From: a virus
Length of the DNA: 64,000 nt
Virus genome (UHGV): UHGV-0057547
Direction: 5' to 3' (one strand)
Shown: piece after piece, positions 19,595-63,136 of the stretch
Layout: the number at the start of each line of letters is the position of its first letter
Position numbering within the stretch: position 1 is the first letter of the stretch
Translations under genes and position numbers: made by a program
Notes under the pieces: model-generated
Told to the model about the DNA's origin: nothing
Seen by the model: the letters and a program-made list of their open reading frames with translations, nothing else
The model's database searches: none

Positions 19595-20686
19595 CTATTT
19601 ATTATAATTTTTATATTCTTTAATTAGCTTCTTTGTATAATTAAATAAACTATTCGAATCTTTTCTTTGTATTTCAACATCATACCATTCCATAGGTGTT
19701 CTTGAATAAAAATCCCCAAACCCTCCTGGTGCAACATGACCATTATGTACTCCCATACCTATTTCAGTACCATAATATATGCATATATCATTATTTTTAA
19801 AAGAGAACATTATTTCTAAAGCTTGTTTTATTTTATTAATATCATGATTAAAACTTACAGATATTCTCGTTTGGTCGTGATTGTCTAAAAATATAACAGA
19901 CCTTTCTTCATTATTGTCAATAACTAAATGTTGTTTATTTATAACTGTGTTTTTAACCCATCCAGCTTCCTGGAAGTTAAATGTCTTCATACCTGTTTCT
20001 TTTGCATACATATCACTTATTTCAAAACTATCCCATGCTTCTCCTACAATATATGCGTTAGGTTTTATTGAATAAACCATATTACAGAACCATTTCCAAA
20101 ATTCAATCTTATCACCACTTGCAAAAATAATAGCATCAAGTCTAAAACCATCTACCTTATGTTCTAATAACCAAAATCTAATTACACTTTCAATCATTTC
20201 TCTAACTTTTTCAGATTGATTATTAAGTTGTGGCATTTGCTCTGACCAAGGGGCTAGATACCATTTTTTATTACTATAGCAGTATTTCCATTGGTTATTT
20301 ATTTGAACATCAGACCAAAAGTAGCAGTCATTTTTTCCTTCTATACTCTCTTGAAATAATTTATGATGATATCCGGTATGACATAAAACTAAATCTAATA
20401 ATACTTCTAAACCATTTTCATGTGCCTTTTTAATAAAATTATCAAAATCTTCTAAAGTCCCATATTGTTCTCTAATTTTAAAATATGAATCTACAGAATA
20501 CCCATGTTCATTATCAGATGGATGAATAGGAGTTAACCATAAAGTTGTAACTCCCAATTCTACAAAATAAGGTATTTTTTCAGTTAAATCTTTAAAATCT
20601 CTACAAAATGATGGAAAATATATTTCATATATCACTCTTCTTTTTTTATTCATTTTTTTCTTCACACTCCTTGATATAATCTTCAT
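19595..20686 (-). CDS. glycoside hydrolase family 13 (alpha-amylase catalytic domain)-like protein
   Basis: GH13 regions: DGFRLDAIIF (region II), IVGEAWD (region III), FLDNHDQTR (region IV). Confidence 0.6.
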   Translation of the reverse strand: MKIISRSVKKKMNKKRRVIYEIYFPSFCRDFKDLTEKIPYFVELGVTTLWLTPIHPSDNEHGYSVDSYFKIREQYGTLEDFDNFIKKAHENGLEVLLDLVLCHTGYHHKLFQESIEGKNDCYFWSDVQINNQWKYCYSNKKWYLAPWSEQMPQLNNQSEKVREMIESVIRFWLLEHKVDGFRLDAIIFASGDKIEFWKWFCNMVYSIKPNAYIVGEAWDSFEISDMYAKETGMKTFNFQEAGWVKNTVINKQHLVIDNNEERSVIFLDNHDQTRISVSFNHDINKIKQALEIMFSFKNNDICIYYGTEIGMGVHNGHVAPGGFGDFYSRTPMEWYDVEIQRKDSNSLFNYTKKLIKEYKNYNK

Positions 20687-24988: not shown

Positions 24989-26605
24989 TTATTTATTACT
25001 TTCATAAAAAACTTTATATAATTTATATGTCTCATATAAATCACGCTTACTAATTGTTTCCATAGGGCTATGCATGGATGCCGTAGGCACACCAGCATCC
25101 ATTGTTTCCATTCCTCTTATTCCAAAGAACATAGCAACTGTTCCTCCACCAGTTTCACTAACTTTAGTTGTATCAACTTGATATTTTACATTATTATCAA
25201 CACATAAACCTTTAATATATTCTCTCATCTCTATACTTGCATCATTTCCTCGTTTTAATCCAGTAAATGGTACTAATGCAACACCATTACCACATACTGC
25301 TTTGGCACTATCTTCAAAGTGACTACTATAATTACTATCAAATCCACCAGTTACATCTGCACTAATTACCTTTGTATTTCTCATAAACTCTCTAGTCAAT
25401 AATGTATGTCCATTTGCTAAAATAAGAAATATATCATCTATAAATTGAGTTTCAGCACCACTCATTTGTCCACTTCCAGTTTCTTCATAAGCAGTGAATA
25501 AAGCTATCTTTGTTCTTTTATTAGGCTTGCTAGTTAATATAGCTTCTAATTCAGCATAAGCACAACTTTTATCATCATGTCCATAACCTAATAATAAATC
25601 TTTATCTAATCCCATTTCTAAAGTTCTAAAATAAGGTACAAAACTTAAATCAGCTAATTCAAAATTCTCTTTTGTTATTCCATATTCTTTTTCTAGCATT
25701 TCAAATAATTCTTCTTTATTTCCATTACTCATTCTTACTAATAATTTATCATAAGACAAGTCTTTCACTTCTTTTCTACCTCTTAAATGAGGCAATAAAC
25801 TAGTTATAGAAAATAAATATCCTTTTTCTCCAGTATTTATATATTTGATTTCATCATCTACTTTTATTTTTCCAACCATTACAAAAGGTCTATCCAACCA
25901 TAATTGTGGTATTATTCCTCCATATGGTTGTGTTTTTATAAATGTTCCATCATCATTAGATACAAATGGTTCACCTACTATAACATCTAATCTAGGACTA
26001 TCAATATGACTTACTATTAAATTAGCACCTTCTGATATATCTTCACCTACTTCTACTAAAGCTATCAATTTATCTCTAAATTCAAATATTAATTTATCTC
26101 CTACATTAAAGTGTTTATAATTATAAGTTTTATATCCCACATCTTCTGCTTTATCTTTTATATATTTTAATACTTGTGTTTCATGTAAGCCTTCTTCTAA
26201 TAAATATTTATATTCATCTATAAAATTATCCTCTTCATTATTATCTTGTGCCTTATATAATTCTTCTAATAAAACATCTAATACATCTCTATCTTTTTCT
26301 TCATCAATTATTTCTTTTAAGGTATCATATTTTATATCAGGAAGCCATTTTGAATACATAACATTATCTCTAAATATTATTTTTATTCTTGATTTTTTAG
26401 CTATAATAGATTTTGTGTTTAATTCATAAATCTTTTTCCATTGAGTTGGCAATTCTCTTCCATTCGACCAATAATAACCCAATTCTTCTAATGATATTAA
26501 TACTTGCTCAATAACTTCTTTATCATCATTAACTTCTATTATAACTTGTTTATCATTTTTTTTACTTAATTCCTCTATTAAACTTGTTATCCTTCTTATA
26601 CTCAT
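24989..26605 (-). CDS. M18/M42-like aminopeptidase-family protein with N-terminal extension
   Basis: C-terminal GGGTVAMFFGIRGMETMDAGVPTASMHSPMET resembles the C-terminal zinc-ligand region of the aspartyl aminopeptidase family. Confidence 0.4.
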   Translation of the reverse strand: MSIRRITSLIEELSKKNDKQVIIEVNDDKEVIEQVLISLEELGYYWSNGRELPTQWKKIYELNTKSIIAKKSRIKIIFRDNVMYSKWLPDIKYDTLKEIIDEEKDRDVLDVLLEELYKAQDNNEEDNFIDEYKYLLEEGLHETQVLKYIKDKAEDVGYKTYNYKHFNVGDKLIFEFRDKLIALVEVGEDISEGANLIVSHIDSPRLDVIVGEPFVSNDDGTFIKTQPYGGIIPQLWLDRPFVMVGKIKVDDEIKYINTGEKGYLFSITSLLPHLRGRKEVKDLSYDKLLVRMSNGNKEELFEMLEKEYGITKENFELADLSFVPYFRTLEMGLDKDLLLGYGHDDKSCAYAELEAILTSKPNKRTKIALFTAYEETGSGQMSGAETQFIDDIFLILANGHTLLTREFMRNTKVISADVTGGFDSNYSSHFEDSAKAVCGNGVALVPFTGLKRGNDASIEMREYIKGLCVDNNVKYQVDTTKVSETGGGTVAMFFGIRGMETMDAGVPTASMHSPMETISKRDLYETYKLYKVFYESNK

Positions 26606-30950: not shown

Positions 30951-31072
30951 GTTTCAGTGCTTGTTACAATTTCAGAACAAGCTTCCCTATTCATCGTATC
31001 CTCTTTCCTTTTTACAAAGTACTCAAGTTTGTATGATACTCCCAGGGCGTAAATTCGGAACTGAACTTTCCT
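30951..31072 (-). ncRNA. conserved structured RNA element (copy 2), directly downstream of promoter 31094..31122
   Basis: Minus-sense AUAGGAAAGUUCAGUUCC-GAAUUUACGCCCUGGGAGU-(UACAAACUUGAGUACUUUGUA hairpin)-GAGGAUACGAUGAAUAGGGAAGCUUGUUCUGAAAUUGUAACAAGCACUGAAAC. Confidence 0.6.
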
Positions 31073-32522: not shown

Positions 32523-33386
32523 TTATATTTTTCTTTTTAAGTTATATACAGAATATACATTTGCTTTTATATTCATATTGTTTAATAAACCTTTAATTTG
32601 TTTTTCACTTAATTCAATTCCAGTTTCAAGTTCAAAGTTTTTGATTTTATCTGCAACATAAGAATTATATAAAGAAGTAGTTGATATTCCTTCAACATCT
32701 ATTCTTCTTAATATTCTGTTTATTTTATCTCTACCTGCATTTTCTTTAATTCTATCTAATCCATCATTGTTAAATTTATTTTTTCTATTTTTCCATAGGT
32801 ATGGATTGCTTTCATTATAGTAGTAGTAATCATAATTACTTTTTTCTTTAACATACATTTTATATCCACGTTCTTTAGATGCTTTATCAATTATTCCCAT
32901 AGTATAATCATCTAAAACTATTTTTTTATCTTCTAATTTTATTTCATTTTTTTCAACATTAATATTATCCATTTTTATATTAATGATTTCTTCACCTTTT
33001 AATCCATTTCTTAATAATAGTACTATAGCTTTATCTAAATAGTTTTCAAATACATTAACGCCCATTATAACTTCTTCATAAGGGATATATCTTAATGTTC
33101 CATTTTCTATATCTAATAAGTCATTTTTATTTATATCTCTATATACTTTATTTCCTATAAATATTAAATATTTTTTTAATAAACTCCATTTAACTGCTAA
33201 TGTATTATATTTTCTACAGTCTAAAGAAGATAACATGTTTATACAGTCTTCTTTATTCCAATCTTCTATTGTTCTATTTATTGTTGTTTCATGTGCTTCT
33301 ATATTTTTGAATAATGTAACATATGATTTTCTAGTACTTTCACTCATTTCTTTTTCTTTTAAAAATCTACTTATATTAGTTTCCAT
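32523..33386 (-). CDS. divergent tyrosine-recombinase-like protein (paralog A; no box II HxxR)
   Basis: Integrase SAM-like N-terminal domain; box I-like LLLRNGLKGEEIINIKMDNI; C-terminal LRRIDVEGISTTSLYNSYV has a candidate Tyr but no HxxR. Confidence 0.4.
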   Translation of the reverse strand: METNISRFLKEKEMSESTRKSYVTLFKNIEAHETTINRTIEDWNKEDCINMLSSLDCRKYNTLAVKWSLLKKYLIFIGNKVYRDINKNDLLDIENGTLRYIPYEEVIMGVNVFENYLDKAIVLLLRNGLKGEEIINIKMDNINVEKNEIKLEDKKIVLDDYTMGIIDKASKERGYKMYVKEKSNYDYYYYNESNPYLWKNRKNKFNNDGLDRIKENAGRDKINRILRRIDVEGISTTSLYNSYVADKIKNFELETGIELSEKQIKGLLNNMNIKANVYSVYNLKRKI

Positions 33387-33406
33387 AACATCTCTTCTCC
33401 TTTTTA

Positions 33407-34297
33407 TTAATTATTTGCCTTTTGTTTGGTCATATTTCTAATATCATAAACATTTTTTGTAATACCAAATTCATATTTTAAATAATCCCTTAGTTCACTT
33501 TGAGTTAAATTTCTTTCTATTTTATGTTGATGTTCAATTACTTTATCAACTACATAACTAAGGGTAAGGTTGCTTAATATGATAGTGTTATCATTTAATT
33601 CCTCTTTTATTTTTTGAAGTCTACCTCTCATGCCACTTATTTTTAAATGTGATAATCCATCATTAGTCCATTTGGTTCTTCTAGTCTTAAATAGATATTC
33701 ACTATCCATATTGTATACTATTATTTTTTCATAGCTCCCTAGTGCCACATATTCTTTTTCTTCTGTTGCTCTTTTAACTAGATACATTGTATAGTCATCT
33801 ATTCTCTTATTATATATCATATTTCTTTTAAAATCAATATCTTTTACTTTTAATTTTACTAAATCTTCTGCTTCAAATTTCATTCCTATACCATTTCTAG
33901 CTAAAAATAATAATGCTTTATCAGAATAGTTTTCCAATTTGCTGACTAGTTTTATTAAATCTTCTTTATAGATATATCTTTTTTCTTCATACTCTTTATT
34001 GATTTCTATGATTTTATTCAAATCTTTTTTTGTAATTAATTTTATATTTTTATTTCCTATGAAGTCATAATACTTTTTTAGTAAACTCCATCTGCTATTA
34101 ATAGAATTGTATGTACCCTTATCTATGCAATGATTAAGTAATAATATAAATTCTTCTTTACTTTTAATATCTTCTATGTTTTTATTCAATACTTTTTCTA
34201 ATTCTATCATTTTTGCAAATAGACTTTCATACATGTTATATGTATTTTCATTATTAATTGTTGCTAAAAATATTTCTCTATACTTCATGTATATCAC
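33407..34297 (-). CDS. divergent tyrosine-recombinase-like protein (paralog B)
   Basis: Paralogous to 32523..33386 (WSLLKKY.FIGNK; ALLFLARNGIGMKFEAEDL box I-like; C-terminal LTLSYVV). Confidence 0.4.
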   Translation of the reverse strand: MIYMKYREIFLATINNENTYNMYESLFAKMIELEKVLNKNIEDIKSKEEFILLLNHCIDKGTYNSINSRWSLLKKYYDFIGNKNIKLITKKDLNKIIEINKEYEEKRYIYKEDLIKLVSKLENYSDKALLFLARNGIGMKFEAEDLVKLKVKDIDFKRNMIYNKRIDDYTMYLVKRATEEKEYVALGSYEKIIVYNMDSEYLFKTRRTKWTNDGLSHLKISGMRGRLQKIKEELNDNTIILSNLTLSYVVDKVIEHQHKIERNLTQSELRDYLKYEFGITKNVYDIRNMTKQKANN

Positions 34298-36681: not shown

Positions 36682-37257
36682 TTAAGATAATTCTAAACAT
36701 TTATGTTTTATTTTTTTAACCGCTCTATTGAAAATTTGATTTACATTTTGTTTTGATAAATGTAATATTTTACCCATTTCCTCAAACGTATAACCAGCTA
36801 AGAACAATCTTATAATTTGTCCACTTCTTTCACTTATTAAATCAGCATATTTTATTATTTCTTTAACTAAATCTTTTTCTATAATTTTATCTTCCAAATT
36901 ATAATCATATTCTATTAATTCTAATAATGTTTTACTTTCTTCTTCATGAACAATTTTTCTATCCAAACTATCAACAGTTGCATCTCCTCTTCTTTTCATT
37001 GTATTTTTATTTTGATAAAATTTTTTACAACTCCATTTAATAGAATTTTCTATAAAAACAGATTTTCCCATTACTTCATCTAATTTATCTAGGTCTTTTA
37101 ATAGATTTAATATTATTTCTGATTTCAAATCTTCAAGACCAAAATAATTATTCTTTGCATTGTTATAATAAAACATTCTTGCATATTTATCTATCAGCAT
37201 TTCATAATCATTTATTATGTTAACCTTTAATTCATTATTCATATACCCCATCTCCAT
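36682..37257 (-). CDS. sigma-70-family RNA polymerase sigma factor (phage-encoded, small)
   Basis: Region 2-like DYEMLIDKYARMFYYN; region 4 HTH LHLSKQNVNQIFNRAVKKIK. Confidence 0.6.
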   Translation of the reverse strand: MEMGYMNNELKVNIINDYEMLIDKYARMFYYNNAKNNYFGLEDLKSEIILNLLKDLDKLDEVMGKSVFIENSIKWSCKKFYQNKNTMKRRGDATVDSLDRKIVHEEESKTLLELIEYDYNLEDKIIEKDLVKEIIKYADLISERSGQIIRLFLAGYTFEEMGKILHLSKQNVNQIFNRAVKKIKHKCLELS

Positions 37258-37294
37258 TTATAATTTTTATTTTTCTAATATGTATTCTACTATA

Positions 37295-37406
37295 GTTTCA
37301 ATGCTTACATTTAAGCTTCCCTATTCAACATATCCTCTTTCACCTAATGGCTACTTGAGTTTGTGTGATACTCCCAGGGCGTAAATTCGGGTTTGAACAT
37401 CCCTAC
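37295..37406 (-). ncRNA. conserved structured RNA element (copy 3), in the 5' leader of sigma factor gene 36682..37257
   Basis: GUAGGGAUGUUCAAACCC-GAAUUUACGCCCUGGGAGU...GGAUAUGUUGAAUAGGGAAGCUUAAAUGUAAGCAUUGAAAC. Near-identical to the copy at 41340..41451. Confidence 0.6.
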
Positions 37407-37443
37407 ATATTAATTTTTTATTTTTATTATCTTATTTACTTAT

Positions 37444-37472
37444 ATTATACTATTGCTATTATTAAAAGTCAA
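37444..37472 (-). promoter_or_regulatory. consensus promoter cassette
   Basis: TTGACT (37467-37472), 17 nt, TATAAT (37444-37449). Confidence 0.6.
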
Positions 37473-37507
37473 TAATTATTTAAAAAAATTAAGGAGAAAA
37501 TCTCTCC

Positions 37508-37756
37508 TTAATCTTCATCAACAGTAAGTTTTGCATTAGGCATGAAAACTAAAACTAAAAACCAAAACAATCCGTTTAATCCATTGCTATCATTTAACAT
37601 AGGTGCTAGCCAATTTAACCAAGGAATACCATTGACATTTACATTAACTATGTCTAGTATCCAAATTACATAAATTGCCATCTTAACTAAACTAACTAAA
37701 GTATTAAATAAAAAACATATAAAAATATTTCTATATTTCATTCTCATCCTCTCCAA
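37508..37756 (-). CDS. small membrane protein
   Basis: 82 aa, two hydrophobic segments. Confidence 0.35.
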   Translation of the reverse strand: MERMRMKYRNIFICFLFNTLVSLVKMAIYVIWILDIVNVNVNGIPWLNWLAPMLNDSNGLNGLFWFLVLVFMPNAKLTVDED

Positions 37757-38120
37757 TCTCTTTTAAATAATTTCCAAACTCAATAAAAACTTTCAAATCT
37801 CTTAAAGATTCATCGATATAATTAGAAGTTTTTATACTTACTTTTTCTAAGTTTTCATTTTCACATCTTAATTTATCTATTTCATATTCAATTCTATCAT
37901 TCTTCTCATCAATTGGTTCAGAATAATATACATCAATTATATAGGGAACTTTATAATCAACTCTAATCTTCAATCCTTCTATCTTTCCATTTACAATATG
38001 ATTTTGTAAATGTTTAATAGCTTCTCTACCTATTGTAACCTTATTACAACGTTTACTATGTGTCATATTATATAATTTAATGTTAACTATTAATTCATCA
38101 TAATAACTATATTCCTTCAT
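37731..38120 (-). CDS. hypothetical protein
   Basis: 129-aa ORF; no recognisable motif. Confidence 0.35.
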   Translation of the reverse strand: MKEYSYYDELIVNIKLYNMTHSKRCNKVTIGREAIKHLQNHIVNGKIEGLKIRVDYKVPYIIDVYYSEPIDEKNDRIEYEIDKLRCENENLEKVSIKTSNYIDESLRDLKVFIEFGNYLKEIGEDENEI

Positions 38121-38132
38121 AATATCACCATC

Positions 38133-38918
38133 CTAATCAGCAAATTTAAAAGATACTTTCATATCAGCTTTAGTACAACTAGCTTGAGCATTATATTTTT
38201 TATTTAATAGATTATATTTTATTGTATATTTGTTACAACCTAAAACTTTACAAGCTATTAAATAATTGTCAAATACTTTATGATAACCATCATTATTAAA
38301 TACAATTACTTCTTTATCTTCTATTTTATCACTTTCATCTTCATAATCATATTCATTAATACTTAATTGTTCTTTATTGTTTATTAATTCTTTTCTTAAT
38401 TTCATTATTAATTGTTGCACTCTTTGTTTACTTATTTCCATTTTACAACCTATTTCCTCATAGTTATAACCATTCATAAGCATTATAACTATATCATATA
38501 ATCTTTTATCTTTTAAATTTTTTATATAATTTAATATTTCATTTCTATAAATACCTGTAAAATCATCTAATCTTCCAACAGTTCTATCTCTAACTTTTTC
38601 GGTATCTTCATCCATACCTTCATTTTCATGAACTTTTCTTTCTCCACCTTTTTGAACATATTTATATAAATCATTATTAACAAAACTTAACATTTTATTT
38701 CTAATTGATTTTACAGCCAAAGTACTAAATTTTCCTTTACTTTCATCATAAGTTTTAATGACATTATATAAAGTTATCATTCCAATTTGTTTTAAATCAG
38801 CATATACATCATATTCAGATACAGTTGTATAGAAAAATCTTTGTATTACCCAATCCACTAAACTTTCATTTTCTATTAACATTTTTTCTATTCTTATTTC
38901 ATTTTCAAATTTTTCCAT
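38133..38918 (-). CDS. sigma-70-family sigma factor
   Basis: Region 2 DWVIQRFF...ADLKQIGMITLYNVIKTYDESKG; region 4 MEISKQRVQQLIMKLRKEL. Confidence 0.6.
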   Translation of the reverse strand: MEKFENEIRIEKMLIENESLVDWVIQRFFYTTVSEYDVYADLKQIGMITLYNVIKTYDESKGKFSTLAVKSIRNKMLSFVNNDLYKYVQKGGERKVHENEGMDEDTEKVRDRTVGRLDDFTGIYRNEILNYIKNLKDKRLYDIVIMLMNGYNYEEIGCKMEISKQRVQQLIMKLRKELINNKEQLSINEYDYEDESDKIEDKEVIVFNNDGYHKVFDNYLIACKVLGCNKYTIKYNLLNKKYNAQASCTKADMKVSFKFAD

Positions 38919-39016
38919 CTTTCATATCCCCCATTCTTTATCATATAATAATTATATTACATTTTTTATCTATTGTCAACAATTATCACCAACTTTATTT
39001 TTTATTTTTTTTTACT

Positions 39017-39763
39017 TTATTCCCTCCATTCAAAATTTATTTTCTTATTTAAAGTTTTACTTTTAGCACTTTTCCTTAATCCTTGACATATTTTCCTAAT
39101 AGAGTTCTTATCAATGCCTAAATCTTCACTAGCCATTTGAAGATTATCATAATTTTTATAAAATTTTCCATCTATAAAAGCTACAACACTTCCTTTACTT
39201 TTCCTAATTTCATGTTTAATATTAAATTTTTCTTTTAAGTTTTCTTTTATAAAAAACATTTTTTTATTTATAATACGATAATTATTATTTAATATTTCAC
39301 TTATTTCTTTTCCGTTGTATCCTCTTAGCATATAGTAAAATATTATATAATAATCTCCACCTAAATTCTTTACATATTGTAAATACATTTCAATGTATAA
39401 AATTGTTTCGTCATCATAATCACCCAACATATCTTCAAGAGTTAACTTTTCATCTTCTTTAGTTTGTATATCTTCATTAAGTGATAAAATATTTTTATTA
39501 TTTATTGTATGTTTTTTATTAATATAGGTTATAATAGAATTGTAAATGCATTTACTACAATAACAAATAAAGGATTTCTCATTGTTTATATTGTCAATAG
39601 GTCTATAAGTCTTATATGCTTTTACAATAGCTATTCTACCTTCTTGTAATAAATCATCATAATCATTGCTATAAATGAAATTTGAAAAATGTCTTTTGAT
39701 ATTTGATTTAATCAGATATTCATATTTGATTACAACTTCATTTATATCAATTGCGTTCTCCAT
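39017..39763 (-). CDS. sigma-70-family sigma factor-like protein
   Basis: Region 2-like DDLLQEGRIAIVKAYKTYRP; C-terminal basic HTH-like region. Confidence 0.5.
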   Translation of the reverse strand: MENAIDINEVVIKYEYLIKSNIKRHFSNFIYSNDYDDLLQEGRIAIVKAYKTYRPIDNINNEKSFICYCSKCIYNSIITYINKKHTINNKNILSLNEDIQTKEDEKLTLEDMLGDYDDETILYIEMYLQYVKNLGGDYYIIFYYMLRGYNGKEISEILNNNYRIINKKMFFIKENLKEKFNIKHEIRKSKGSVVAFIDGKFYKNYDNLQMASEDLGIDKNSIRKICQGLRKSAKSKTLNKKINFEWRE

Positions 39764-39870
39764 TTTTCAATTCCCCCTTTATTACTTTATTTACTTATAT
39801 TATACTATCATTCTTATTAAAAGTCAATAATAAAAAAAATAAAAAAGGAGAAAATTTTCTCCTTACAAAT

Positions 39871-41339: not shown

Positions 41340-41451
41340 GTTTCAATGCTTACATTTAAGCTTCCCTATTCAACATATCCTCTTTCACCTAATGGCTACT
41401 TGAGTTTGTGTGATACTCCCAGGGCGTAAATTCGGGTTTGAACATCCCTAC
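41340..41451 (-). ncRNA. conserved structured RNA element (copy 4), in the 5' leader of gene 40879..41256
   Basis: Near-identical to copy 3. Promoter 41489..41517 immediately upstream. Confidence 0.6.
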
Positions 41452-41488: not shown

Positions 41489-41517
41489 ATTATACTATTG
41501 CTATTATTAAAAGTCAA
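41489..41517 (-). promoter_or_regulatory. consensus promoter cassette
   Basis: TTGACT (41512-41517), 17 nt, TATAAT (41489-41494). Confidence 0.6.
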
Positions 41518-41621: not shown

Positions 41622-41786
41622 TGTTTCAGTGCTTGTTACACTTGTATGGAAAGACTACTAAAAAGACAATGGAGTTTCAGTGCTTTGACAAGCTTCCCTG
41701 TTCATCGTGTTCTTTTTCACTTTATATAAGCTACTCAAGTTTTTATAACACTCCAAGGGCGTAAATTCGGAACTGAACTTTCCTAC
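41622..41786 (-). ncRNA. conserved structured RNA element (copies 5 and 6; internally duplicated 3' module), located 47 nt downstream of the tnpB stop codon with no promoter of its own. Candidate omegaRNA-like RNA
   Basis: Same AUAGGAAAGUUCAGUUCC-GAAUUUACGCCCUUGGAGUG-...-GAACACGAUGAACAGGGAAGCUUG core, then two GCACUGAAAC modules. Positionally equivalent to a TnpB omegaRNA (3' of tnpB, same strand). Confidence 0.5.
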
Positions 41787-41832: not shown

Positions 41833-43014
41833 TTAATATTGTGCTAAGTTTATAGAGGCATTTAAGTCTCTATCCATTGTGTGTCCACATTCAGGACAAG
41901 TAAAAGTTCTATCTTTCAATTTTAATCTTTCTTTTCCTATTCTTATATATCCACATTTACTACAAGTTTGTGAACTAGGATACCATCTGTCAGCTACTAC
42001 TAATTCAATTCCATAGTCATCACATTTATAAGTTAATTGATTTTTGATTTCATTAAATCCTTGTTGCCCTATTGATTTACTTAGATGTTTATTTTTCATC
42101 ATCCCTTTTACGTTTAAATTTTCAATAACTACTCTTTGTGGTTTCTTTTCTACTATTTGATGTGTCATTGTATGTCTATAATTATTTCTTATACCTGCAA
42201 TTCTATGTTGTAATTTAAGTATTTGTTTTTCTAATTTTATTATATTATTAGTCTTATGATATTTCTTTCCTTGTCTATTCATTTCATATTTTCTACTCAC
42301 TTGTCGTTGCATACGTTTTAATTTCTTTTCTAATTTTCTAACATGAGCAGTTTTATTAATGTTTTTATATACTGTGCCATCACTACATATTGCTAAATCT
42401 TTTATTCCTAAGTCTATTCCTAATGATGTTGGATTTAATTCAGGTTTTTCTTTTATTTCTCTTAAGCCTACACTAATGCTCCAATATATCCCATTGTATG
42501 TGACTCTAGGATTTACATATTTAATTTTAGGATACATTTCGCTTTCTTCATAAGGTATATAACCTTTTCTAGCTAATTTGATTGTTCCTATCTTAGATAT
42601 TTTTACTGTATCTTCAGTGATTTTTATACGTTGATAATGTGGTGCAAAAGCTGGAGTTGTTTTATTTCTACTTTTAAATTTAGGATAACCAACATCAGGT
42701 CTTTTGAAAAAATTTTTAAAAGCATTACAACTATCTGTATATGCAATTACTAGTGCCATTGAATCACAATCTTTAAGCCATTCATTACCTTCTTGATTTT
42801 TGTAAGCAGTGAAATATTTGCTTAATCCTTTTGATGGTATAAACTTTTCTTTTTTAGGAATACTTTCATCTTCATATCTACTTTTTTGAAATGCTAAACA
42901 CCAATTATATACATGTCTTGCACATCCTGCTTGAAAGAACATTTGTTTTTCTTGTTGTTTTGTTGGATATAACCTAACTTTGAAAGTTCTAATCTCCATT
43001 TTCAATTCCCCCAT
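41833..43014 (-). CDS. tnpB: TnpB (IS200/IS605 OrfB-type RuvC-like nuclease), catalytic residues intact
   Basis: FKVRLYPTKQQ N-terminus; RuvC-I GIDLGIKDLA; RuvC-II VVIENLNVKGMMKN; zinc finger CSKCGY...CPECGH; RuvC-III MDRDLNASINLA. Confidence 0.85.
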   Translation of the reverse strand: MGELKMEIRTFKVRLYPTKQQEKQMFFQAGCARHVYNWCLAFQKSRYEDESIPKKEKFIPSKGLSKYFTAYKNQEGNEWLKDCDSMALVIAYTDSCNAFKNFFKRPDVGYPKFKSRNKTTPAFAPHYQRIKITEDTVKISKIGTIKLARKGYIPYEESEMYPKIKYVNPRVTYNGIYWSISVGLREIKEKPELNPTSLGIDLGIKDLAICSDGTVYKNINKTAHVRKLEKKLKRMQRQVSRKYEMNRQGKKYHKTNNIIKLEKQILKLQHRIAGIRNNYRHTMTHQIVEKKPQRVVIENLNVKGMMKNKHLSKSIGQQGFNEIKNQLTYKCDDYGIELVVADRWYPSSQTCSKCGYIRIGKERLKLKDRTFTCPECGHTMDRDLNASINLAQY

Positions 43015-45384: not shown

Positions 45385-45498
45385 GTTTCAATACTTGTTA
45401 TCAAGCTTCCCTATTCAACGTATCCTCTTCCCCTCTTATGAGGTACTCAAGTTTATATGATACTCCAAGGGCGTAAATTCGGAACTGAACTTTCCTAT
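45385..45498 (-). ncRNA. conserved structured RNA element (copy 7), a stand-alone unit flanked by its own promoter (45518..45546) and terminator (45303..45331)
   Basis: AUAGGAAAGUUCAGUUCC-GAAUUUACGCCCUUGGAGUAUC...GGAUACGUUGAAUAGGGAAGCUUGAUAACAAGUAUUGAAAC. Terminator about 45 nt downstream; a second promoter then drives the next gene. Confidence 0.6.
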
Positions 45499-50842: not shown

Positions 50843-50952
50843 GTTTCAGTGCTCATTAGTAAGCTTCCCTGTTCAACGTGTTCTCTTTCGTTTTAAACTA
50901 CTCAAGTTTTTTACAACACTCCAAGGGCGTAAATTCGGAACTGAACTTTCCT
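50843..50952 (-). ncRNA. conserved structured RNA element (copy 8)
   Basis: Promoter TTGACATTATATATAAGCTAGTATATAAT immediately upstream. Element ends GCACUGAAAC about 30 nt before the next ATG. Confidence 0.55.
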
Positions 50953-55142: not shown

Positions 55143-55254
55143 GTTTCAATGCTTGTAACAAGCTTCCCTATTCAACGTGTTCTTTTTCACTTTATAAGCT
55201 ACTCAAGTTTTTGTAACACTCCCAGGGCGTAAATTCGGAACTGAACTTTCCTAC
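55143..55254 (-). ncRNA. conserved structured RNA element (copy 9)
   Basis: Promoter 55270-55320 upstream. GUAGGAAAGUUCAGUUCC-GAAUUUACGCCCUGGGAGUG...GAACACGUUGAAUAGGGAAGCUUGUUACAAGCAUUGAAACGC. Followed only by tiny ORFs (21 and 23 aa). Confidence 0.55.
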
Positions 55255-55736: not shown

Positions 55737-55845
55737 GATATAAAACCCTCCTAAATATTCTCATTTTTTTATTTAATTCCTATGAAAGTTTTTAACTTTC
55801 AGTAACTGAAAAAGGAATTTAATTTTCCTTTTTCTCGCACATATT

Positions 55846-56145
55846 TTAGGATACATAAGCTACTTGCTCTACTATAAAATTTCTCTTTTCTAACTCATGA
55901 GTTATTTTTTCGCTTTCATTTTTTAGTTTTTTTCTAGCTAAATCATAGAAGTCCCAAAAATACATTAAATTTATATCTATTCTATAACCACTTATTATTA
56001 TTACTTGGTCTTCATATTCTAACTGTAAATCAGCACTTAAATAATCTTCTTCATTGACATATATTGCAACCCTTATATTATCATTATCTTTTCTATTTAT
56101 CATGTTTATAGCTTTTTCAATGCTATTATATCTTATTTTTTTCAT
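55846..56145 (-). CDS. hypothetical protein
   Basis: 99-aa ORF; promoter and RBS upstream. Confidence 0.4.
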   Translation of the reverse strand: MKKIRYNSIEKAINMINRKDNDNIRVAIYVNEEDYLSADLQLEYEDQVIIISGYRIDINLMYFWDFYDLARKKLKNESEKITHELEKRNFIVEQVAYVS

Positions 56146-56274
56146 AATATAAAACCCTCCTAAAATTTTATTTATTAACTATATTATAGCATTTTAGCTA
56201 TATAAAGTCAATAAAATATTTAATTCTCATGAAAGTTTTTAACTTCCATGTAACAGAGGATTATAATTAATCCT

Positions 56275-56514
56275 CTATAAATAGTATTTGTAATTAATTA
56301 TGCTATTCACATAGCAACTTTCAGCAACTTTATATGCATTTAAGCTTCTGCTTATATGCACTCCAAAAGTTCTATTTGCTATTTTAACTGCTTTTGTTAG
56401 ACTTATTAATTCTTGTTCAACTGCATAGTTTAAACAAGGATATAATGCAATAATTGCACGTCTATTGCTTTCAGCTCTAACTATTTTTCCATTTACAACG
56501 AATTTTTTATTCAT
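56275..56514 (-). CDS. hypothetical protein
   Basis: 79-aa ORF; AGGAGGG RBS upstream. Confidence 0.4.
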   Translation of the reverse strand: MNKKFVVNGKIVRAESNRRAIIALYPCLNYAVEQELISLTKAVKIANRTFGVHISRSLNAYKVAESCYVNSIINYKYYL

Positions 56515-56917
56515 ATAAGACCCTCCTAAATATTTCCATTTTTTTATTTAATTTTCATGAAAGTTTTTAGCTTTCATGTTACAGAGGATTTTAATTAATC
56601 CTCTACAAATATTTCTAAGATATCATCTTTAAAATCCCACGCTTCAAGATGCTTATAGCTTACATTATGTTCTTTTGCTTCTTCTCCAATGTCTAAATCA
56701 GATATTCCTTTTATGGTATATCTATTTACTAAATCTTTAAATCCTTCAGTTACTTTAAATTCATATCTTTTCATAATACAAAACCCTCCTAAATATTTTC
56801 ATTTTTTTATTTAATTTTCATTTATATTATATACCAGTTTTTATATAAAGTCAATATATAATATAAAAAAATCCAAAGTTAGGTTTAAATTTAACTTTGG
56901 AATAACTGAAAAAGGAA

Positions 56918-57211
56918 CTAATAAGTTAAAATTCCTTTTTCTTTATAACTTGCCATTTTAAAACCTAAGTTTTCATTTAATGTTTCTATATTGTCTAATA
57001 TGAAAATCTTATCGTCATGATTCAAATATGATATATTATATTCTTTTTCATTGTTTACAGTCCATGATAAAATTATATTTTGTTCTTCCATAGCATTTAA
57101 TAGAATATTAATATTGTTATAATTCTTTTCCTCTGCATAGAAAACTTTTAAGTCTATTTTGTTTATTTCAATTTCTTTTTTCATATATAAAACCCTCCTA
57201 AATATTTTCAT
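56918..57211 (-). CDS. hypothetical protein
   Basis: 97-aa ORF, cassette region. Confidence 0.4.
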   Translation of the reverse strand: MKIFRRVLYMKKEIEINKIDLKVFYAEEKNYNNINILLNAMEEQNIILSWTVNNEKEYNISYLNHDDKIFILDNIETLNENLGFKMASYKEKGILTY

Positions 57212-57267
57212 TTTTTTAATTAATTCTCATGAAAGTATTTAACTTTCACGATTACAGAGGATTATAA

Positions 57268-57654
57268 TTAATCCTCTATTATTTCTTCATATTCTGCAAT
57301 TGTAACTTCATTGTATATTTCATTTACCATATACTCAAAAGCTAACCAACTTAAATTATTTGCATCTACTTCAAAATCAGGACTTAAATTTTCTTTTGTG
57401 CTATTGTATATTTCAAATATTTCTTCCATATGTTTAATGAAGAAACATTTTGTTTCATTAAAGTATATTAATTCTCCTATCATACCACTTGCACACCCAT
57501 ATTGAATTACTTCCTCTAAAAATGTTATTGGATTTTCATAATCATCAATATGATTAAGAATTATATCAATAACATTATCCTTTAATTCGCTTTCTCCATA
57601 CATATTTTCTAAAAAAGTATTTAATTTCATAAAAACCCTCCTAAATATTTTCAT
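57268..57654 (-). CDS. hypothetical protein (paralog of 59621..59986)
   Basis: KLNTFLENMYGESELKDNVIDIILNHIDDYENP vs MLENLYGESELKDNVIDILLDHIEDYEEP. Stop codon sits in a conserved hairpin loop. Confidence 0.45.
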   Translation of the reverse strand: MKIFRRVFMKLNTFLENMYGESELKDNVIDIILNHIDDYENPITFLEEVIQYGCASGMIGELIYFNETKCFFIKHMEEIFEIYNSTKENLSPDFEVDANNLSWLAFEYMVNEIYNEVTIAEYEEIIED

Positions 57655-57709
57655 TTTTTTAATTAATTCTCATGAAAGTATTTAACTTTCACGATTACAG
57701 AGGATTAAT

Positions 57710-58072
57710 TTAATCCTCTAAGCTATACGCCATACACATGTTAAAATCTTTATCCTTATATTGTTCTGAAAAATCAATAACTATGAATTCGCCATTATTG
57801 CTTTTATGTTTATACCATTTTGTACCAGTTAATCCATTTAGCCATGATTTTTTACCTTTGACATCACCTTCTAACATTTCAAATACTACTTCATTATTAT
57901 TATATCTAATACCTTTTCTCTTGCTTATATCTTTTGTTAATTTTACATATTTTTCATTTTCCATATTTAACAATTCATGAGCTTTTTCTAAGCTAACATA
58001 TCCAGTTAAAACTAATTTAGATATACTTTCTCTTAATTCTATCATACCTTGTTTTTTAGTTATTTTTTTCAT
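57710..58072 (-). CDS. hypothetical protein
   Basis: 120-aa ORF, cassette region. Confidence 0.4.
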   Translation of the reverse strand: MKKITKKQGMIELRESISKLVLTGYVSLEKAHELLNMENEKYVKLTKDISKRKGIRYNNNEVVFEMLEGDVKGKKSWLNGLTGTKWYKHKSNNGEFIVIDFSEQYKDKDFNMCMAYSLED

Positions 58073-58190
58073 AATATAAACCCTCCTAAAATTTTATTTA
58101 TTAACTATATTATAGTATAACCACTATATAAAGTCAATAAATATTTTAATTATTACAAAAGTTTTTAACTTTTGTTACTGAAGAAGGATT

Positions 58191-58526
58191 TTATTTTCCT
58201 TCTTCTATGTCTTTATTGAATAAAGATTTTATTTTCTTAGAGAATTTTTTATTACATGTCACGTCATAAAATTTGAATTCATTGTAAAAAGTATATTCTT
58301 TTAATGCTTCAAGGTGTGAATTAATCGCTTGAGTTGTAGAACTTGTATCATAATTGCAATTATCAACAATTATTTTACTTTCAAGCGTATCAATTATCAT
58401 TATTATATTTTCATGATACATTAGATAGTAACTATCATTAATCTTGCTAAATGAATGATTCCCTATTTTCATTTTAATGTTACCTTCCATTATTCCTCTA
58501 AATAATTTTTCACTATATTTTCTCAT
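58191..58526 (-). CDS. hypothetical protein
   Basis: 111-aa ORF; promoter TTGACT-17-TATAAT at about 58105-58135 upstream. Confidence 0.4.
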   Translation of the reverse strand: MRKYSEKLFRGIMEGNIKMKIGNHSFSKINDSYYLMYHENIIMIIDTLESKIIVDNCNYDTSSTTQAINSHLEALKEYTFYNEFKFYDVTCNKKFSKKIKSLFNKDIEEGK

Positions 58527-58644
58527 ATCATACCCTCCTAAAATTCATTTATTAACTATATAATAACATAGTGTTTATATAAAGTCAATAAATATTTTAA
58601 TTATTACCAAAAGTTTTTAACTTTTGGATAACTGAAGAAGGAAT

Positions 58645-58935
58645 TTATTTTCCTTCTTCTTTTCTAAATCTGAACTCAAATATATTTTCTTTTCTATGTC
58701 CTTTGATTAAATCAATCTCACTTTCGCCTTGTTGGTCTGTATTGTGGATTAAATTATATACTAAAAATCCAACTCTTGTATCGCCTTCATATTGAAAATA
58801 AACTAAGTCATTTTTAAAATCAATTCTTATTTTATTTATCCATATATTTTCATTTATTCTTTTTTCTCTTTTAATCATGTCAATTATTTTATCCATATTC
58901 TTTAATATCTCAAGTCTTATTTGTTTTCTATTCAT
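58645..58935 (-). CDS. hypothetical protein
   Basis: 96-aa ORF, cassette region. Confidence 0.4.
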   Translation of the reverse strand: MNRKQIRLEILKNMDKIIDMIKREKRINENIWINKIRIDFKNDLVYFQYEGDTRVGFLVYNLIHNTDQQGESEIDLIKGHRKENIFEFRFRKEEGK

Positions 58936-59062
58936 ATAAAACCCTCCTAAAATTTATTTATTAACTTTATTGTAGTATAACCACTATATAAAGTCAATAA
59001 ATATTTTAATTATTACAAAAGTTTTTAACTTTTGTTACTGAAGAAGGAAAAAATCCTTCTTC

Positions 59063-59305
59063 TTATAAGTTTTCAACTTCTATGCTTGTAATTGTATTTC
59101 CATTGCAAGTTATTAAAAATCCTACTTTACTTTTAAAGGATTTTACAAATAATGCTTGAAAAAAATTACCCTTACAGTATGAACTTTTAGGACTATAGCC
59201 TATACTGTTCATGAAAGGTATAATTCTTTTTTCACCTTTTATAATGTTTATTTCTTTTATTTCCTCTTCACTAAATATTTTTTTCATTGATTCATAATTA
59301 TTCAT
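59063..59305 (-). CDS. hypothetical protein
   Basis: 80-aa ORF, cassette region. Confidence 0.4.
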   Translation of the reverse strand: MNNYESMKKIFSEEEIKEINIIKGEKRIIPFMNSIGYSPKSSYCKGNFFQALFVKSFKSKVGFLITCNGNTITSIEVENL

Positions 59306-59620
59306 AATGTAAACCCTCCTAAATTTTTAATTCAGTAATAAAAATTACTGTTACTGAAGAAGGAAAAAATCCTTCTTCTTATAATGTATCTAAAAAGTTA
59401 TTAACAATTGATATTTCTTTATCGTTTAATAATATTTCAGTATGGCAATATTTAGAATTAATGTAACTATTTTCAAAATGTATATTGTTTTCATGAAGAA
59501 AATCTATTAATAACATAGTGTCCTTTCTATTTAGTTCTATATTATAATATTTTTTCATAATAAAAATCCTCCTAAAATTTTATTTCAGTAATTTAAAATT
59601 ACTGTTACTGAAGAAGAGAA

Positions 59621-59986
59621 TTAAATCTCTTCTTCTTCTTCTTCTTCCATTGTTTCAACTTCATTATATATTTCACTTACCATATACTCAAAAGCTAACC
59701 AGCTTAAATTATTTGCGTTTACTTCAAAATCATCACTTAAATTGTCTTTAAGTTGGTTGTAAATGTCGAATATTTCTTCCATATGTTTAATGAAGAAACA
59801 TTTTGTTTCATTATAGTATATTAATTCAGGTACTGTACCACTAATACAACCATAATTCATAATGTCTTCTAAAAATCCTTTTGGTTCTTCATAGTCTTCA
59901 ATATGGTCTAAAAGGATATCAATAACATTATCCTTTAATTCGCTTTCTCCATATAAATTTTCTAACATATTATTTATTTTTTTCAT
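59621..59986 (-). CDS. hypothetical protein (paralog of 57268..57654)
   Basis: See 57268..57654; C-terminal poly-Glu. Confidence 0.45.
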   Translation of the reverse strand: MKKINNMLENLYGESELKDNVIDILLDHIEDYEEPKGFLEDIMNYGCISGTVPELIYYNETKCFFIKHMEEIFDIYNQLKDNLSDDFEVNANNLSWLAFEYMVSEIYNEVETMEEEEEEEI

Positions 59987-60103
59987 AATAAAAACCCTCC
60001 TAAAATTTATAAATTTTATTTCAGTAACTCAAAATTTATATTTGAATTACTGTCACTGAAAAAGTATAGATTTTATAAAATCCCTTGTTTTTTCTTATAT
60101 TTT

Positions 60104-60436: not shown

Positions 60437-60892
60437 TTACAAAACCTCCCTTTTTTAAAACAAGAGATTTTATAAACTCTATACCTTTTCCGATTAACTG
60501 AAAAAGGATAAAATCCTTTTTCCGTTTTTAGGAGGAGGGAACATATTCAATTATATAATAGGATTTTTACCATTGCACTTCATACGCCCTTGTAACTGTT
60601 CAATGGCTGTTGGATAATAAAATCCAACTTTTGATTATTATCTTATAACCTTTTGAGTACTTTTCAGGAGTTCCGACTTAAAAAGTATGTTTTCGTAAGT
60701 ACTTATTAATCGTCGATTAACAGTTTACCTATATAACCTTTGGTAATAGGGTTTTTACCAAAAGCACCTTTTAAGTTTTTCCTCTTGTCAGTTGCTTAAA
60801 AGTTTTAAGATAATGCTTAGCTCTAAAAAATGCTAAGCTTCTATTATATACCTTATGCGTATAGCTTAAGGATTTTTTTTATTACTTTTTCT

Positions 60893-61240
60893 TTAATTGT
60901 ATCATGTCTTTTATTCAATGTCAACTGCTTTTTTAAAAATCTTTTAAAACTTTTTAAGTAGTTCCTAAGTTGCTTTATTAACTTAATTGTAGTAGTTCTT
61001 TTATTCAATGTCAACTATTTTTTAAAAGTTTTTTAAATTTTTTTTAAGTAGCTCTTAAACTGCTTTCCTAAGTTGCTTTTGTTTTATTATCTTAATTGTA
61101 GCAGGTCTTTTATCTAATGTCAAGTACTTTTTTAAAACTTTTTAAAACTTTTTTAACTGCCTTTCCTAAGTTGCTTTTGTTTTATTAACATAATTGTAGC
61201 ATCACTTTATTGATTGTCAACTATTTTTTTATGTTTTTTT
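60893..61240. repeat. about 3.5 tandem direct repeats of a roughly 100-bp unit (iteron-like) in the divergent intergenic region
   Basis: Unit TAATTGTAG...TCTTTTATTCAATGTCAACTRYTTTTTAAAARYTTTTAAAACTTTTTAAGTAGYTCYTAAGTTGCTTT repeated at about 60893, 60998, 61093 and partially 61192. Confidence 0.6.
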
Positions 61241-61572
61241 ATGTTTTTTGTATACATTAAACAATATACAAAATACAATATTCATTATAATGTATACAAT
61301 ATATCTATATTCTTTTTAGTATCAGTTCTAAAATCATTTTTCTATTTTATTTTTTTTCTACTGTTGCCGTATGACGTGATATAAGGCGTTTTAAAGACTT
61401 TTAAGATAGTTAGTGGATAATTAATCAATTAGATAATATATTCTCTTATATTGTCTTCTATTGCCTTATATTGATATATGAAAAAAAATAGAAAAACTTT
61501 TGAATAATTGTTGACATTAGATAATATTATGCTAACATTAAGATAATAAATAAATAAAGGAGATTGATAAGC

Positions 61573-61782
61573 ATGAAAAAATATAGTATAGAAATAAAGG
61601 GCAATATATGGACAAAGGAATTAATTGTTAATATATGCAAGGAAAAGAGACTATTTAAATATAATGTAACAGAATTATTAAGTGGATTAAAATACTGTAT
61701 ACAATTGAATGATTTAAGCTTTTGGAACTATCATTATTTTAAAAAACTTAAAAGAATAGAAGAAAAAAAATAGTAGACTTTT
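61573..61782 (+). CDS. small basic hypothetical protein (plus strand; first rightward gene)
   Basis: ATG at 61573 with AAAGGAG 8 nt upstream. Shares the leader TAAGATAATAAATAAATAAAGGRGATTGATAA with gene 63137..63298. Confidence 0.45.
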
Positions 61783-61800
61783 CTACTATTTTTTTATTGT
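61770..61800 (+). terminator. rho-independent terminator (plus strand)
   Basis: TAGTAGACTTTTCTACTA hairpin followed by TTTTTTTATT. Confidence 0.5.
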
Positions 61801-62900: not shown

Positions 62901-63074
62901 AAGAACATATGATACAAAGAACGAACTGCTTAGGATTGATTGTAAGGCGTTGGCGTTGTGTCCTTCTTATGTTATATCGTTGAGAGTGTATCTCTTCTTA
63001 TATTGCCTTGTATTGTCTTATAATAGTATATGTAAAAAATAGTGTATAGAGAAAAAAATTTTCTTAAAAATTGT

Positions 63075-63102
63075 TGCTAAATAAGAGAGGAACTGCTATA
63101 CT
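63075..63102 (+). promoter_or_regulatory. candidate sigma-A promoter (TTGCTA-16-TATACT) for gene 63137..63298
   Basis: TTGCTA 63075-63080; TATACT 63097-63102; shared leader and RBS downstream. Confidence 0.35.
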
Positions 63103-63136
63103 TAAGATAATAAATAAATAAAGGGGATTGATAAAT

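Follow-up and report, generated by a model that had tools for sequence, protein, structure and literature searches.

Why one phage should carry three sigma factors side by side is the question raised by positions 36682–39763 of the virus genome UHGV-0057547. The 64,000-nucleotide stretch of this genome that was analysed is referred to below as the window. A first-pass annotation had placed three open reading frames (ORFs) of the sigma-70 family in this segment. All three are present, on the minus strand, at 36682..37257 (S1), 38133..38918 (S2) and 39017..39763 (S3), and they encode sigma-70-family factors that are very divergent, with scores far beyond chance. The three proteins are probably made early from host-sigmaA promoters and would then redirect the host core RNA polymerase to middle and late promoters of the phage. 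S2 and S3 carry, after the sigma core, an additional module of a type found in homing endonucleases.

Identity of S1, S2 and S3 as sigma-70-family factors

The region-2-like and region-4 segments first noticed in the translations correspond to sigma2 and sigma4 domains, as supported by profiles, profile-profile comparison and two AlphaFold models. S1 (191 aa) consists of sigma2 and sigma4 only, without a C-terminal module; a start at 37242 supported by a ribosome-binding site (RBS; 186 aa) is as likely as the one at 37257 (191 aa). S2 (261 aa) comprises sigma2 (residues 2–88), a linker (87–124) and sigma4 (125–180), followed by an acidic linker and a beta-beta-alpha-alpha-beta-beta module (204–259). 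S3 (248 aa) has the same order, with sigma2 at ~7–88, a disordered linker at 86–122, sigma4 at 118–180 and a NUMOD1/I-HmuI-like module at 193–246.

End-to-end alignment to TIGR02937, the NCBIfam model for sigma2 plus sigma4, gave 55.0 bits for S1 and 52.6 bits for S2 (cut-off 42.9). S3 scored 40.8 bits, slightly below the cut-off, with profile positions 8–164 of 165 aligned. The search with the Pfam profiles Sigma70_r2 and Sigma70_r4 that the first-pass annotation had called for detected the regions, some single-protein scores being below the cut-off and filled in by homologs. S1 matched Sigma70_r4 with 27.7 bits (cut-off 24.1) and had no match to Sigma70_r2 (PF04542) in a Pfam scan of this protein alone; its homologs at 43–47% identity contain both PF04542 and PF04545. 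S2 matched PF04542 with 29.3 bits (cut-off 24) and r4_2 with 19.7 bits, which is under the cut-off. For S3, PF04542 gave 22.7 bits, slightly below the cut-off; homologs at 38–45% identity contain PF04542, and those at 38–39% also PF08281. Among the 18 members of the extended S2/S3 family, PF04542 was found in 16, r4 in 9 and r4_2 in 7. All three proteins matched the PHROG sigma families 351 and 1740.

When the profile of the S1 family was aligned with that of the S2/S3 family using hhalign, 169 columns including sigma2 were covered with a probability of 98.4% and an E value of 7.9e-15. In the PDB, the best match of the S2/S3 profile was 3mzy, the Fusobacterium SigH, with E 5.8e-16 from sigma2 through sigma4 (S2 against 3mzy, E 4.4e-5), followed by SigF, SigE, SigB, SigK and FliA. 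The S1 profile matched SigA, FliA, SigB and SigH. The AlphaFold models of S3 and S2 had a mean confidence (predicted local distance difference test, pLDDT) of ~70, with low confidence chiefly in the inter-domain linkers, and both display a three-helix sigma2, a disordered linker and a four-helix sigma4. Fold searches of these models against the PDB returned sigma factors as best matches, for example the N-domain of SigE (8b3z) with a TM score of 0.72; for the S2 model, the top 50 matches were sigma factors without exception (50/50).

Mutual identity of S1, S2 and S3 is 23–26%, as in distant paralogs. Exactly three sigma-like ORFs are present in the window, and no fourth was found there or in the other sampled loci of the same phage lineage. 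On sequence grounds, the three are anciently diverged paralogs with a two-domain sigma2–sigma4 layout, nearest to SigH-like or ECF-sized sigma factors. The NCBIfam SigH equivalog models gave 17–27 bits (cut-offs 208–415), so that S1–S3 are not close copies of host regulators. Scores against Pfam Sigma70_ECF (cut-off 21.1) were 16.6 bits for S1 and 17.9 bits for S2, which leaves them below the threshold for ECF (group 4) factors.

C-terminal module of S2 and S3

Both S2 and S3 run 60–70 residues beyond sigma4. The extension is strongly basic, is kept across both families and follows the pattern V-x-A...F-x-N...A-S-x-x-L-G...I-R...F-x-W. In the S3 model it is predicted confidently as beta-beta-alpha-alpha-beta (pLDDT ~90). 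S3 alone matched Pfam NUMOD1 with 20.1 bits, which is marginal against the cut-off of 22.8. In the extended family, NUMOD1 was detected in 6 of the 18 members (best E 1.7e-6) and PF22083, the I-HmuI NUMOD-like model, in 2 of the 18. With Foldseek, the S3 module superposed on I-HmuI (1u3e_M), an HNH homing endonuclease, in its DNA-binding region with a probability of 1.0. A fold search against viral models (BFVD) aligned phage sigma factors over 185–212 columns and HNH, GIY-YIG, "intron-associated endonuclease" and "NUMOD1 domain" proteins over 66–82 columns. The assignment of the S2 module follows from its alignment to the S3 module and from the same topology in the S2 model. The module, which the first-pass annotation had missed, is a NUMOD1/I-HmuI-type homing-endonuclease helix-turn-helix and is thus putatively DNA-binding.

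To judge the size of the family, 1.84 billion representative proteins were searched exhaustively with the profile, as a word-indexed homolog search returned just 2 relatives of S2. The sigma core had 14,637 matches, mostly of 165–195 aa; only about a dozen clusters in the same set match over the entire length, module included. In a review of non-canonical ECF sigma factors, their C-terminal extensions are described as sensory or regulatory, with no DNA-binding type mentioned (PMC8999054). A full-text literature search for NUMOD1 together with "sigma factor" yielded no related account, and a DNA-binding extension as proposed for S2 and S3 would be a type so far undescribed in sigma factors. The phage encodes an HNH-like ORF with a NUMOD region, and no similarity was found between this region and the S2/S3 modules. 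Recent local capture from that ORF was therefore rejected as their origin.

A more far-reaching idea is possible, if on balance doubtful: S2 and S3 may represent a class of sigma factors with a homing-endonuclease module of the NUMOD1/I-HmuI type fused after sigma4, by which promoters are read through three contacts (-10, -35 and upstream) or in which the module replaces a degenerate sigma4. If so, the fusion would be a modular route to private phage promoters that no host sigma factor can use, and two diverged module-bearing copies together with one plain sigma factor would have been maintained in a jumbo-phage lineage. Should the module read DNA, promoter specificity would be extendable by domain capture, and compact orthogonal sigma/promoter pairs could be obtained for synthetic biology in Firmicutes.

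Promoters and operons at the sigma locus

Each sigma gene had been credited with a promoter cassette of its own, and a near-consensus TTGAC-N17-TATAAT is indeed found before each. On the minus strand between 36000 and 41900, the only sites matching 11–12 of the 12 consensus positions are at 39827, 38979, 37472 and 41517, in the gaps that precede S3, S2, the S1 leader and orf125, respectively. Low-stringency matches on the same strand and interval were at chance level (53 found, 48.3 expected).

The S3 promoter (39799..39827, minus strand, TTGACT-N17-TATAAT, 11/12 match) belongs to cassette class A, and directly before it lies an intrinsic-terminator-like hairpin (39845..39864, minus) that closes the upstream unit. 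The S2 promoter (38951..38979, minus, TTGACA-N17-TATAAT, 12/12 match) is of class B; since the gap between S3 and S2 contains no terminator, S2 is also readable from the S3 promoter. Two small genes follow S2 on the same strand. orf129 (37731..38120) begins 12 nt after S2, is co-transcribed with it and is a candidate partner or regulator of S2; it has no Pfam or PHROG match. orf77 (37508..37741), the last gene of the S2 operon, encodes a small hydrophobic protein predicted to be membrane-bound. No anti-sigma domain was matched in either protein in Pfam or PHROG. The S3/S2 operon ends at a terminator-like hairpin with a U-run (37485..37515, minus; 13 bp stem, -13.7 kcal/mol, z -3.26). Behind it, a class A promoter (37444..37472, minus, 11/12 match), whose cassette is identical to that at 41517, serves a RAGATH-18 RNA scaffold and, by read-through, S1. 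All three sigma genes thus stand behind sigmaA-type promoters and none is visibly controlled by another; the temporal cascade that had been suggested for them is not visible.

The five-gene order S3-S2-orf129-orf77-S1 occurs in all sibling genomes shown. It is also found in a divergent relative (L007/L008, binned with a Bacilli metagenome-assembled genome, MAG), in which S3, S2 and S1 are 35%, 48% and 43% identical, respectively. In L008 a separate TTGAC(A/G)-N17-TATAAT promoter precedes every one of the three sigma homologs, and orf129 (30% identity) and orf77 (50%) are kept after the S2 homolog. The persistence of three paralogs side by side over such divergence argues for three separate, non-redundant roles.

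Early-strand promoter cassettes

Near-consensus TTGAC-N17-TATAAT sites number ~50 on the early (minus) strand of the window versus 5 on the other strand, at about one per gene or small operon between ~2200 and 59000. The first-pass view of a ubiquitous sigmaA-type promoter serving the early genes agrees with these 50 sites. Conservation within each cassette class extends well beyond the hexamers, beginning ~15 nt before the -35 hexamer and reaching ~+15; class A, with 22 sites, reads TTGACTTTTAATAA..TAGTATAATATAAgTAAATAA. This additional conservation is kept in the relative whose proteins are just 35–48% identical. Intergenic gaps that at first seemed promoterless contain weakened copies of the same cassette, and nearly every gap of more than 70 nt holds a cassette, if sometimes a weakened one. 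Alternative promoters were rejected on this basis, as the window offers no other type.

The bases conserved outside the hexamers may form a putative operator. Two MrpR-like proteins, that is, dead tyrosine recombinases, are encoded at 32523-33386 and 33407-34297, and in SPbeta the dead-recombinase repressor MrpR binds a repeated element, SPBRE, in intergenic regions (PMC10516654). By analogy, the two proteins of the present phage may bind the cassettes.

Two further arrays on the minus strand were observed. At 60853-61220, four tandem consensus promoters of class D (TTGACATTGAATAAAAGA..TACAAT) lie ~100 nt apart, with no sizeable ORF in between; ...AAGCAACTTAGGAA comes after each of the three upstream promoters. 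The group may represent genes for small RNAs, or else a regulatory array heading the early module. At 55737-60103, small genes (59–121 aa) are separated by near-identical intergenic units in which hairpins (e.g. CATGAAAGTTAAATACTTTCATG; CAGTAACAGTAATT..ATTACTG) are conserved and the ribosome-binding region (AAATTTTAGGAGGG) is identical; the series resembles an early gene cassette amplified in tandem.

Phage genome and late module

That the element is a phage was borne out by its recurrence as contigs of ~200–205 kb, including in IMG/VR, with neck, protease-like and endolysin genes. At ~204 kb it is a jumbo phage, presumably of a low-GC Firmicute; its relatives in MAGs are labelled Bacilli or Clostridia. 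The window corresponds to about positions 64,963–128,962 of a 204,515 bp JGI contig, with an exact match, and near-identical contigs of 175–205 kb are present in many metagenomes and again in IMG/VR, from which only fragments overlapping the window were retrieved with the RAGATH-18 core as an anchor. The window has ~24% G+C and is transcribed leftward almost throughout. Its genes include PolIII-alpha, split by a group I intron, DnaB, ligase and an FtsH-like protease, and this replication-type content marks it as the early and replication module. SPbeta-like markers are present (YorF, YopX, the two MrpR-type proteins and SprT-like proteins), and the integrase and MrpR-like genes give the phage a temperate look. 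Downstream on the same strand follow ribonucleotide reductase, guanylate kinase and thymidylate synthase, and then a late module that runs convergently and contains neck, protease-like, large structural and endolysin genes. Among deposited phages, no relative was detectable by megablast of the locus or by tblastn of S1, S3 and the YorF-like protein; the tblastn searches with S1 and S3 covered 50,697 phage records.

No RNA-polymerase-like gene was found in the sampled sequence, in which the large ORFs are of replication or housekeeping type. An 859 aa ORF upstream of the window, considered as a possible counterpart of the SPbeta polymerase YonO, has no PHROG match, and the ten largest scanned ORFs of the window (363–619 aa) match no RNA polymerase family. 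Jumbo phages without their own RNA polymerase typically encode sigma factors (PMC7824862).

The late module was examined for promoters in related genomes. With a relaxed sigmaA rule, 0–4 sites per 21.8 kb were found on the late strand (six genomes), and with a stricter rule none in the late module of L045. In L148, one weakened class A-like cassette was seen by eye before an ORF inside an intron-like insert of the late module. The late-direction genes of L028 carry early-type cassettes, which led to their rejection as the start of the late module.

The first-pass annotation had further proposed unseen late promoters used by these sigma factors, recognizable as alternative -35/-10 motifs upstream of structural genes. 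The late module is indeed nearly devoid of sigmaA sites; an alternative consensus was not found, and the search yielded just a weak three-site candidate. This is TAAAAGTCTTATTA, which occurs in late intergenic regions at three orthologous places per genome. In the longer form TAAAAGTCTTATTA(T/A)A it lies on the late strand at 3254, 4627 and 10103 of L045 and at 13164, 14537 and 20013 of L148. The third site is a one-base variant in L145 and was not found in L147 or L149. The window contains no exact copy, and one-mismatch hits there are at chance; a scan of IMG/VR for the 14-mer late motif gave chance matches only, among the matches listed. With three sites, a single block and a hairpin after two of them, the motif is only a lead, a candidate late promoter or processing signal.

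Proposed role of the sigma trio and alternative explanations

The observed identity of the proteins, their domain layout, promoters and conservation, and the contrast in promoter content between early and late regions suggest the following course of events. The host sigmaA–RNA polymerase would transcribe S1–S3 early, from the promoters described. The three proteins would then bind the host core RNA polymerase and open promoters without a sigmaA cassette, mainly those of the convergent late module with its structural and lysis genes. The module of S2 and S3, joined to sigma4 by a flexible linker, would most likely contact DNA upstream of the -35 element in a sequence-specific way and add to, or replace, the specificity of sigma4; this proposal derives from the domain identity of the module and from where the C-terminus of sigma4 is known to lie in structures of the holoenzyme. 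Phage sigma takeover being a classic strategy, such a trio is expected biology for a 200 kb phage without a detected polymerase. This deep, uncultured, gut-type phage lineage has three long-maintained and very divergent sigma factors and no detectable relative in deposited phages.

Several points weigh against retargeting of the host polymerase. No target promoter of S1–S3 was found, TAAAAGTCTTATTA being the sole late-strand motif, and that motif consists of one block instead of paired -35 and -10 elements, with a terminator-like hairpin and T-run after 2/3 of its sites. The sigmaA-type promoters before all three sigma genes reveal no cascade order. The sigma4 of S3 has no Pfam match of its own, and S3 alone stays slightly below the curated thresholds of Pfam r2 and TIGR02937. 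About 70 kb of the genome lies outside the sampled sequence and could encode a phage RNA polymerase. Binding of S1–S3 to core RNA polymerase, like their target promoters and the role of the module, is something we infer from sequence.

An unlikely alternative is that the sigma factors act on the host in lysogenic conversion, on sporulation, competence or toxin-type regulons, comparable to phage-borne sporulation-type sigma genes and TcdR-like factors. The nearest cellular neighbours of S1–S3 are of the SigH, SigF, SigK and FliA types, the BFVD fold matches include phage proteins named "SigK" and "SigF", and the temperate look of the phage would fit. Against this stand the SigH scores of 17–27 bits, far from the equivalog cut-offs, and the conservation of three paralogs amid a lytic early module. 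Moreover, a late module without sigmaA promoters needs another initiation factor.

It is quite unlikely that the phage sigma factors rather than host sigmaA read the early cassettes, with classes A, B and C each being the promoter type of one sigma factor and defining temporal classes within the early region. Cassette conservation far past the two hexamers, also in the relative at 35–48% identity, speaks for such specialised recognition, and so does the class B promoter of S2 versus the class A promoters of S1 and S3. However, the hexamers and the 17 bp spacing are the textbook sigmaA consensus, and two-domain SigH- and ECF-like sigma factors normally read other elements. The sigma genes themselves lie behind these cassettes, so something else must fire the cassettes first. 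The extra conservation is also explicable as operators of the MrpR-like proteins (32523-34297), by analogy with SPbeta.

Little probability attaches to a third possibility, in which the proteins are sigma-like decoys that, without directing transcription, occupy core RNA polymerase or compete with the host sigma factor, the displacement also suggested by the first-pass annotation, or in which the S2/S3 module is auto-regulatory as in ECF41/42/238. The region 2.1/2.2 motif of S1 is degenerate, with EDLKSEIILNLL where DLxQEG is expected, the sigma4 of S3 goes unrecognised by Pfam, and the known C-terminal extensions of two-domain sigma factors are regulatory (PMC8999054). Against decoys, selection has maintained both DNA-reading domains across the deep divergence of all three families. 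As for auto-regulation, the extension is strongly basic and belongs to a DNA-binding fold family, whereas none of the reviewed extension types is DNA-binding (PMC8999054). Redirection of the host core polymerase by S1–S3 remains the reading that we prefer.

RAGATH-18 scaffolds and TnpB

A structured leader RNA had been noted before S1. Its structure was confirmed with the Rfam covariance model RF03064 (RAGATH-18), which matches 37317-37379 of the minus strand with 58.4 bits (gathering score 44.9). Its role as a leader was not: RAGATH-18 is the guide RNA (reRNA) scaffold of IS607-type TnpB nucleases (PMC11061315). The S1 copy is an IS607-TnpB-type reRNA scaffold at 37295..37405 (minus, RAGATH-18 core 37317-37379) that ends in TGAAAC; a guide-like segment of 20 nt comes next, at 37275-37294.

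The window holds 8 RAGATH-18 copies of 57–69 bits, all on the minus strand, at 17556-17621, 30983-31047, 37317-37379, 41362-41424, 41694-41759, 45407-45471, 50865-50927 and 55164-55227; only one TnpB gene is present in the 64 kb. All 8 copies share ~115 nt of scaffold ending in TGAAAC and diverge completely where the 20-nt guide would sit. Six are solo units, each with its own consensus cassette promoter and with a guide-like 20-mer that differs from unit to unit. The flanks of four copies occur in sibling genomes without the scaffold, and in one comparison of an occupied with an empty site homology restarts exactly after TGAAAC. Apart from these empty sites in sibling genomes, no second, scaffold-independent target was found for the guide-like segment of any of the 8 scaffolds. 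The S1 homolog of the distant relative L008 has its promoter directly before the RBS, without a scaffold. The RAGATH-18 element before S1 is thus a TnpB-transposon element inserted between promoter and gene and not a dedicated S1 leader. It is an insertion polymorphism, absent in L008, that is co-transcribed with S1 and is not part of the regulation of the sigma factor. Reassigning the "leader" to a mobile TnpB scaffold averts a false annotation as a riboswitch or attenuator.

The IS607-type TnpB (41833-43014, minus, 393 aa; 8iaz_A, E 4e-68) has a RAGATH-18 copy directly downstream, and the RuvC D/E/D triad known from the active enzyme ISFba1 is intact. In the sibling genome L006, TnpB is missing at this site and the sigma trio is present. 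Further TnpB copies were seen elsewhere in the genome (L020, 17162-18262; L024, 5422-6552 and 8303-9307). A partnership between a sigma factor and an RNA-guided effector exists in the dCas12f-sigmaE system, where RNA-guided transcription depends on a dead effector in stable linkage with the sigma gene (PMC12259090). Neither feature was found here, given the intact triad, the lack of TnpB in L006 and the lack of a scaffold in L008.

It is therefore highly improbable that the sigma genes are coupled to the TnpB/RAGATH-18 RNAs, or that TnpB acting on the 5' scaffold of S1 controls that gene: a TnpB gene 2 kb upstream, eight promoter-driven reRNA scaffolds of which one is fused to the S1 transcript, and 9n9q_C among the weak sigma matches are outweighed by the retained RuvC triad, the scaffold polymorphism with empty sites in siblings, and the trio's persistence without TnpB in L006 and without a scaffold in the distant relative, so that a conserved link was rejected as largely refuted. 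The many promoter-driven solo guide-RNA scaffolds in one phage are a separate and possibly more interesting phenomenon; they may be trans-acting guides, mobile promoters or decayed elements.

Other features of the window

The group I intron in PolIII-alpha lies at 4684-4998 (minus; RF00028, 61.9 bits, gathering 50) and was missed by the whole-window gathering scan; the two halves of the gene flank it at 4986-6668 and 3032-4564. At the position of this intron, the sibling L021 has a LAGLIDADG ORF, and late structural genes of L148 contain intron-like inserts. At 61300-64000 and 60437-60852, ~3 kb without credible ORFs are rich in short direct repeats (TGTATACAATAT-like), and the GC skew flips there. 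In addition, a 416 nt stretch has a higher G+C content and looks structured, with no Rfam match at E up to 0.01. The region is possibly a replication origin or a module boundary. Host-like housekeeping genes were also observed on the minus strand of the early module, namely an FtsH-type AAA+/M41 protease, an M18 aminopeptidase and an alpha-amylase-family enzyme (10995-12854, 24989-26605 and 19595-20686, respectively), and the adjacent loci L020 and L018 contain ClpP and DnaJ-domain genes.

Comparison with known systems

The sigma factors gp28 and gp33/gp34 of the Bacillus phage SPO1 form a phage sigma cascade. In SPO1, small phage sigma factors made from strong host-sigmaA early promoters retarget the core RNA polymerase to later phage genes (PMC13401047). 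The present phage resembles SPO1 in having several small sigma factors behind host-sigmaA-type early promoters, which would retarget the host core enzyme. It differs in that S1–S3 lack sequence similarity to deposited phages, two of them carry an extra module and the wiring of a cascade is not visible: all three genes have TTGAC-N17-TATAAT promoters, and the late module offers just the three-site candidate.

In size and layout S1–S3 are similar to SigH-type factors (Fusobacterium nucleatum SigH, 3mzy; B. subtilis SigH), which are their nearest solved and profile neighbours. The NCBIfam SigH models align with them nearly over the full length, yet scores are an order of magnitude below the equivalog cut-offs. 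SigH itself is not known to have a C-terminal module of the S2/S3 type. The 60–70 aa module likewise distinguishes S2 and S3 from the core-only sigma relatives of ~170–190 aa. ECF sigma factors that carry an extension at the C-terminus share the plan of a two-domain sigma factor with an extra domain after sigma4; their extensions (SnoaL-like, TPR, Cys-rich, WD40 and anti-sigma-like) are sensory or regulatory (PMC8999054), whereas that of S2 and S3 is a homing-endonuclease-type helix-turn-helix. With the NUMOD1/I-HmuI modules of HNH and GIY-YIG homing endonucleases, it has in common the small beta-beta-alpha-alpha-beta fold and the sequence pattern. Unlike those enzymes, S2 and S3 have no nuclease domain, and the module is fused to a sigma factor.

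The phage also resembles the group 2 jumbo phages of Iyer et al. (2021), which lack an RNA polymerase, in being large, with no detected polymerase and with its own sigma factors (PMC7824862). Those phages are T4-like, with gp55/gp33-type or RpoD-like factors, whereas this one has SPbeta-like markers and SigH/ECF-sized sigma factors. By analogy, S1–S3 work like the sigma factors of SPO1 and of jumbo phages without a polymerase, yet they are not sequence members of those groups. The sigma–NUMOD architecture of S2 and S3 is a rare variant of the familiar phage takeover of host RNA polymerase.

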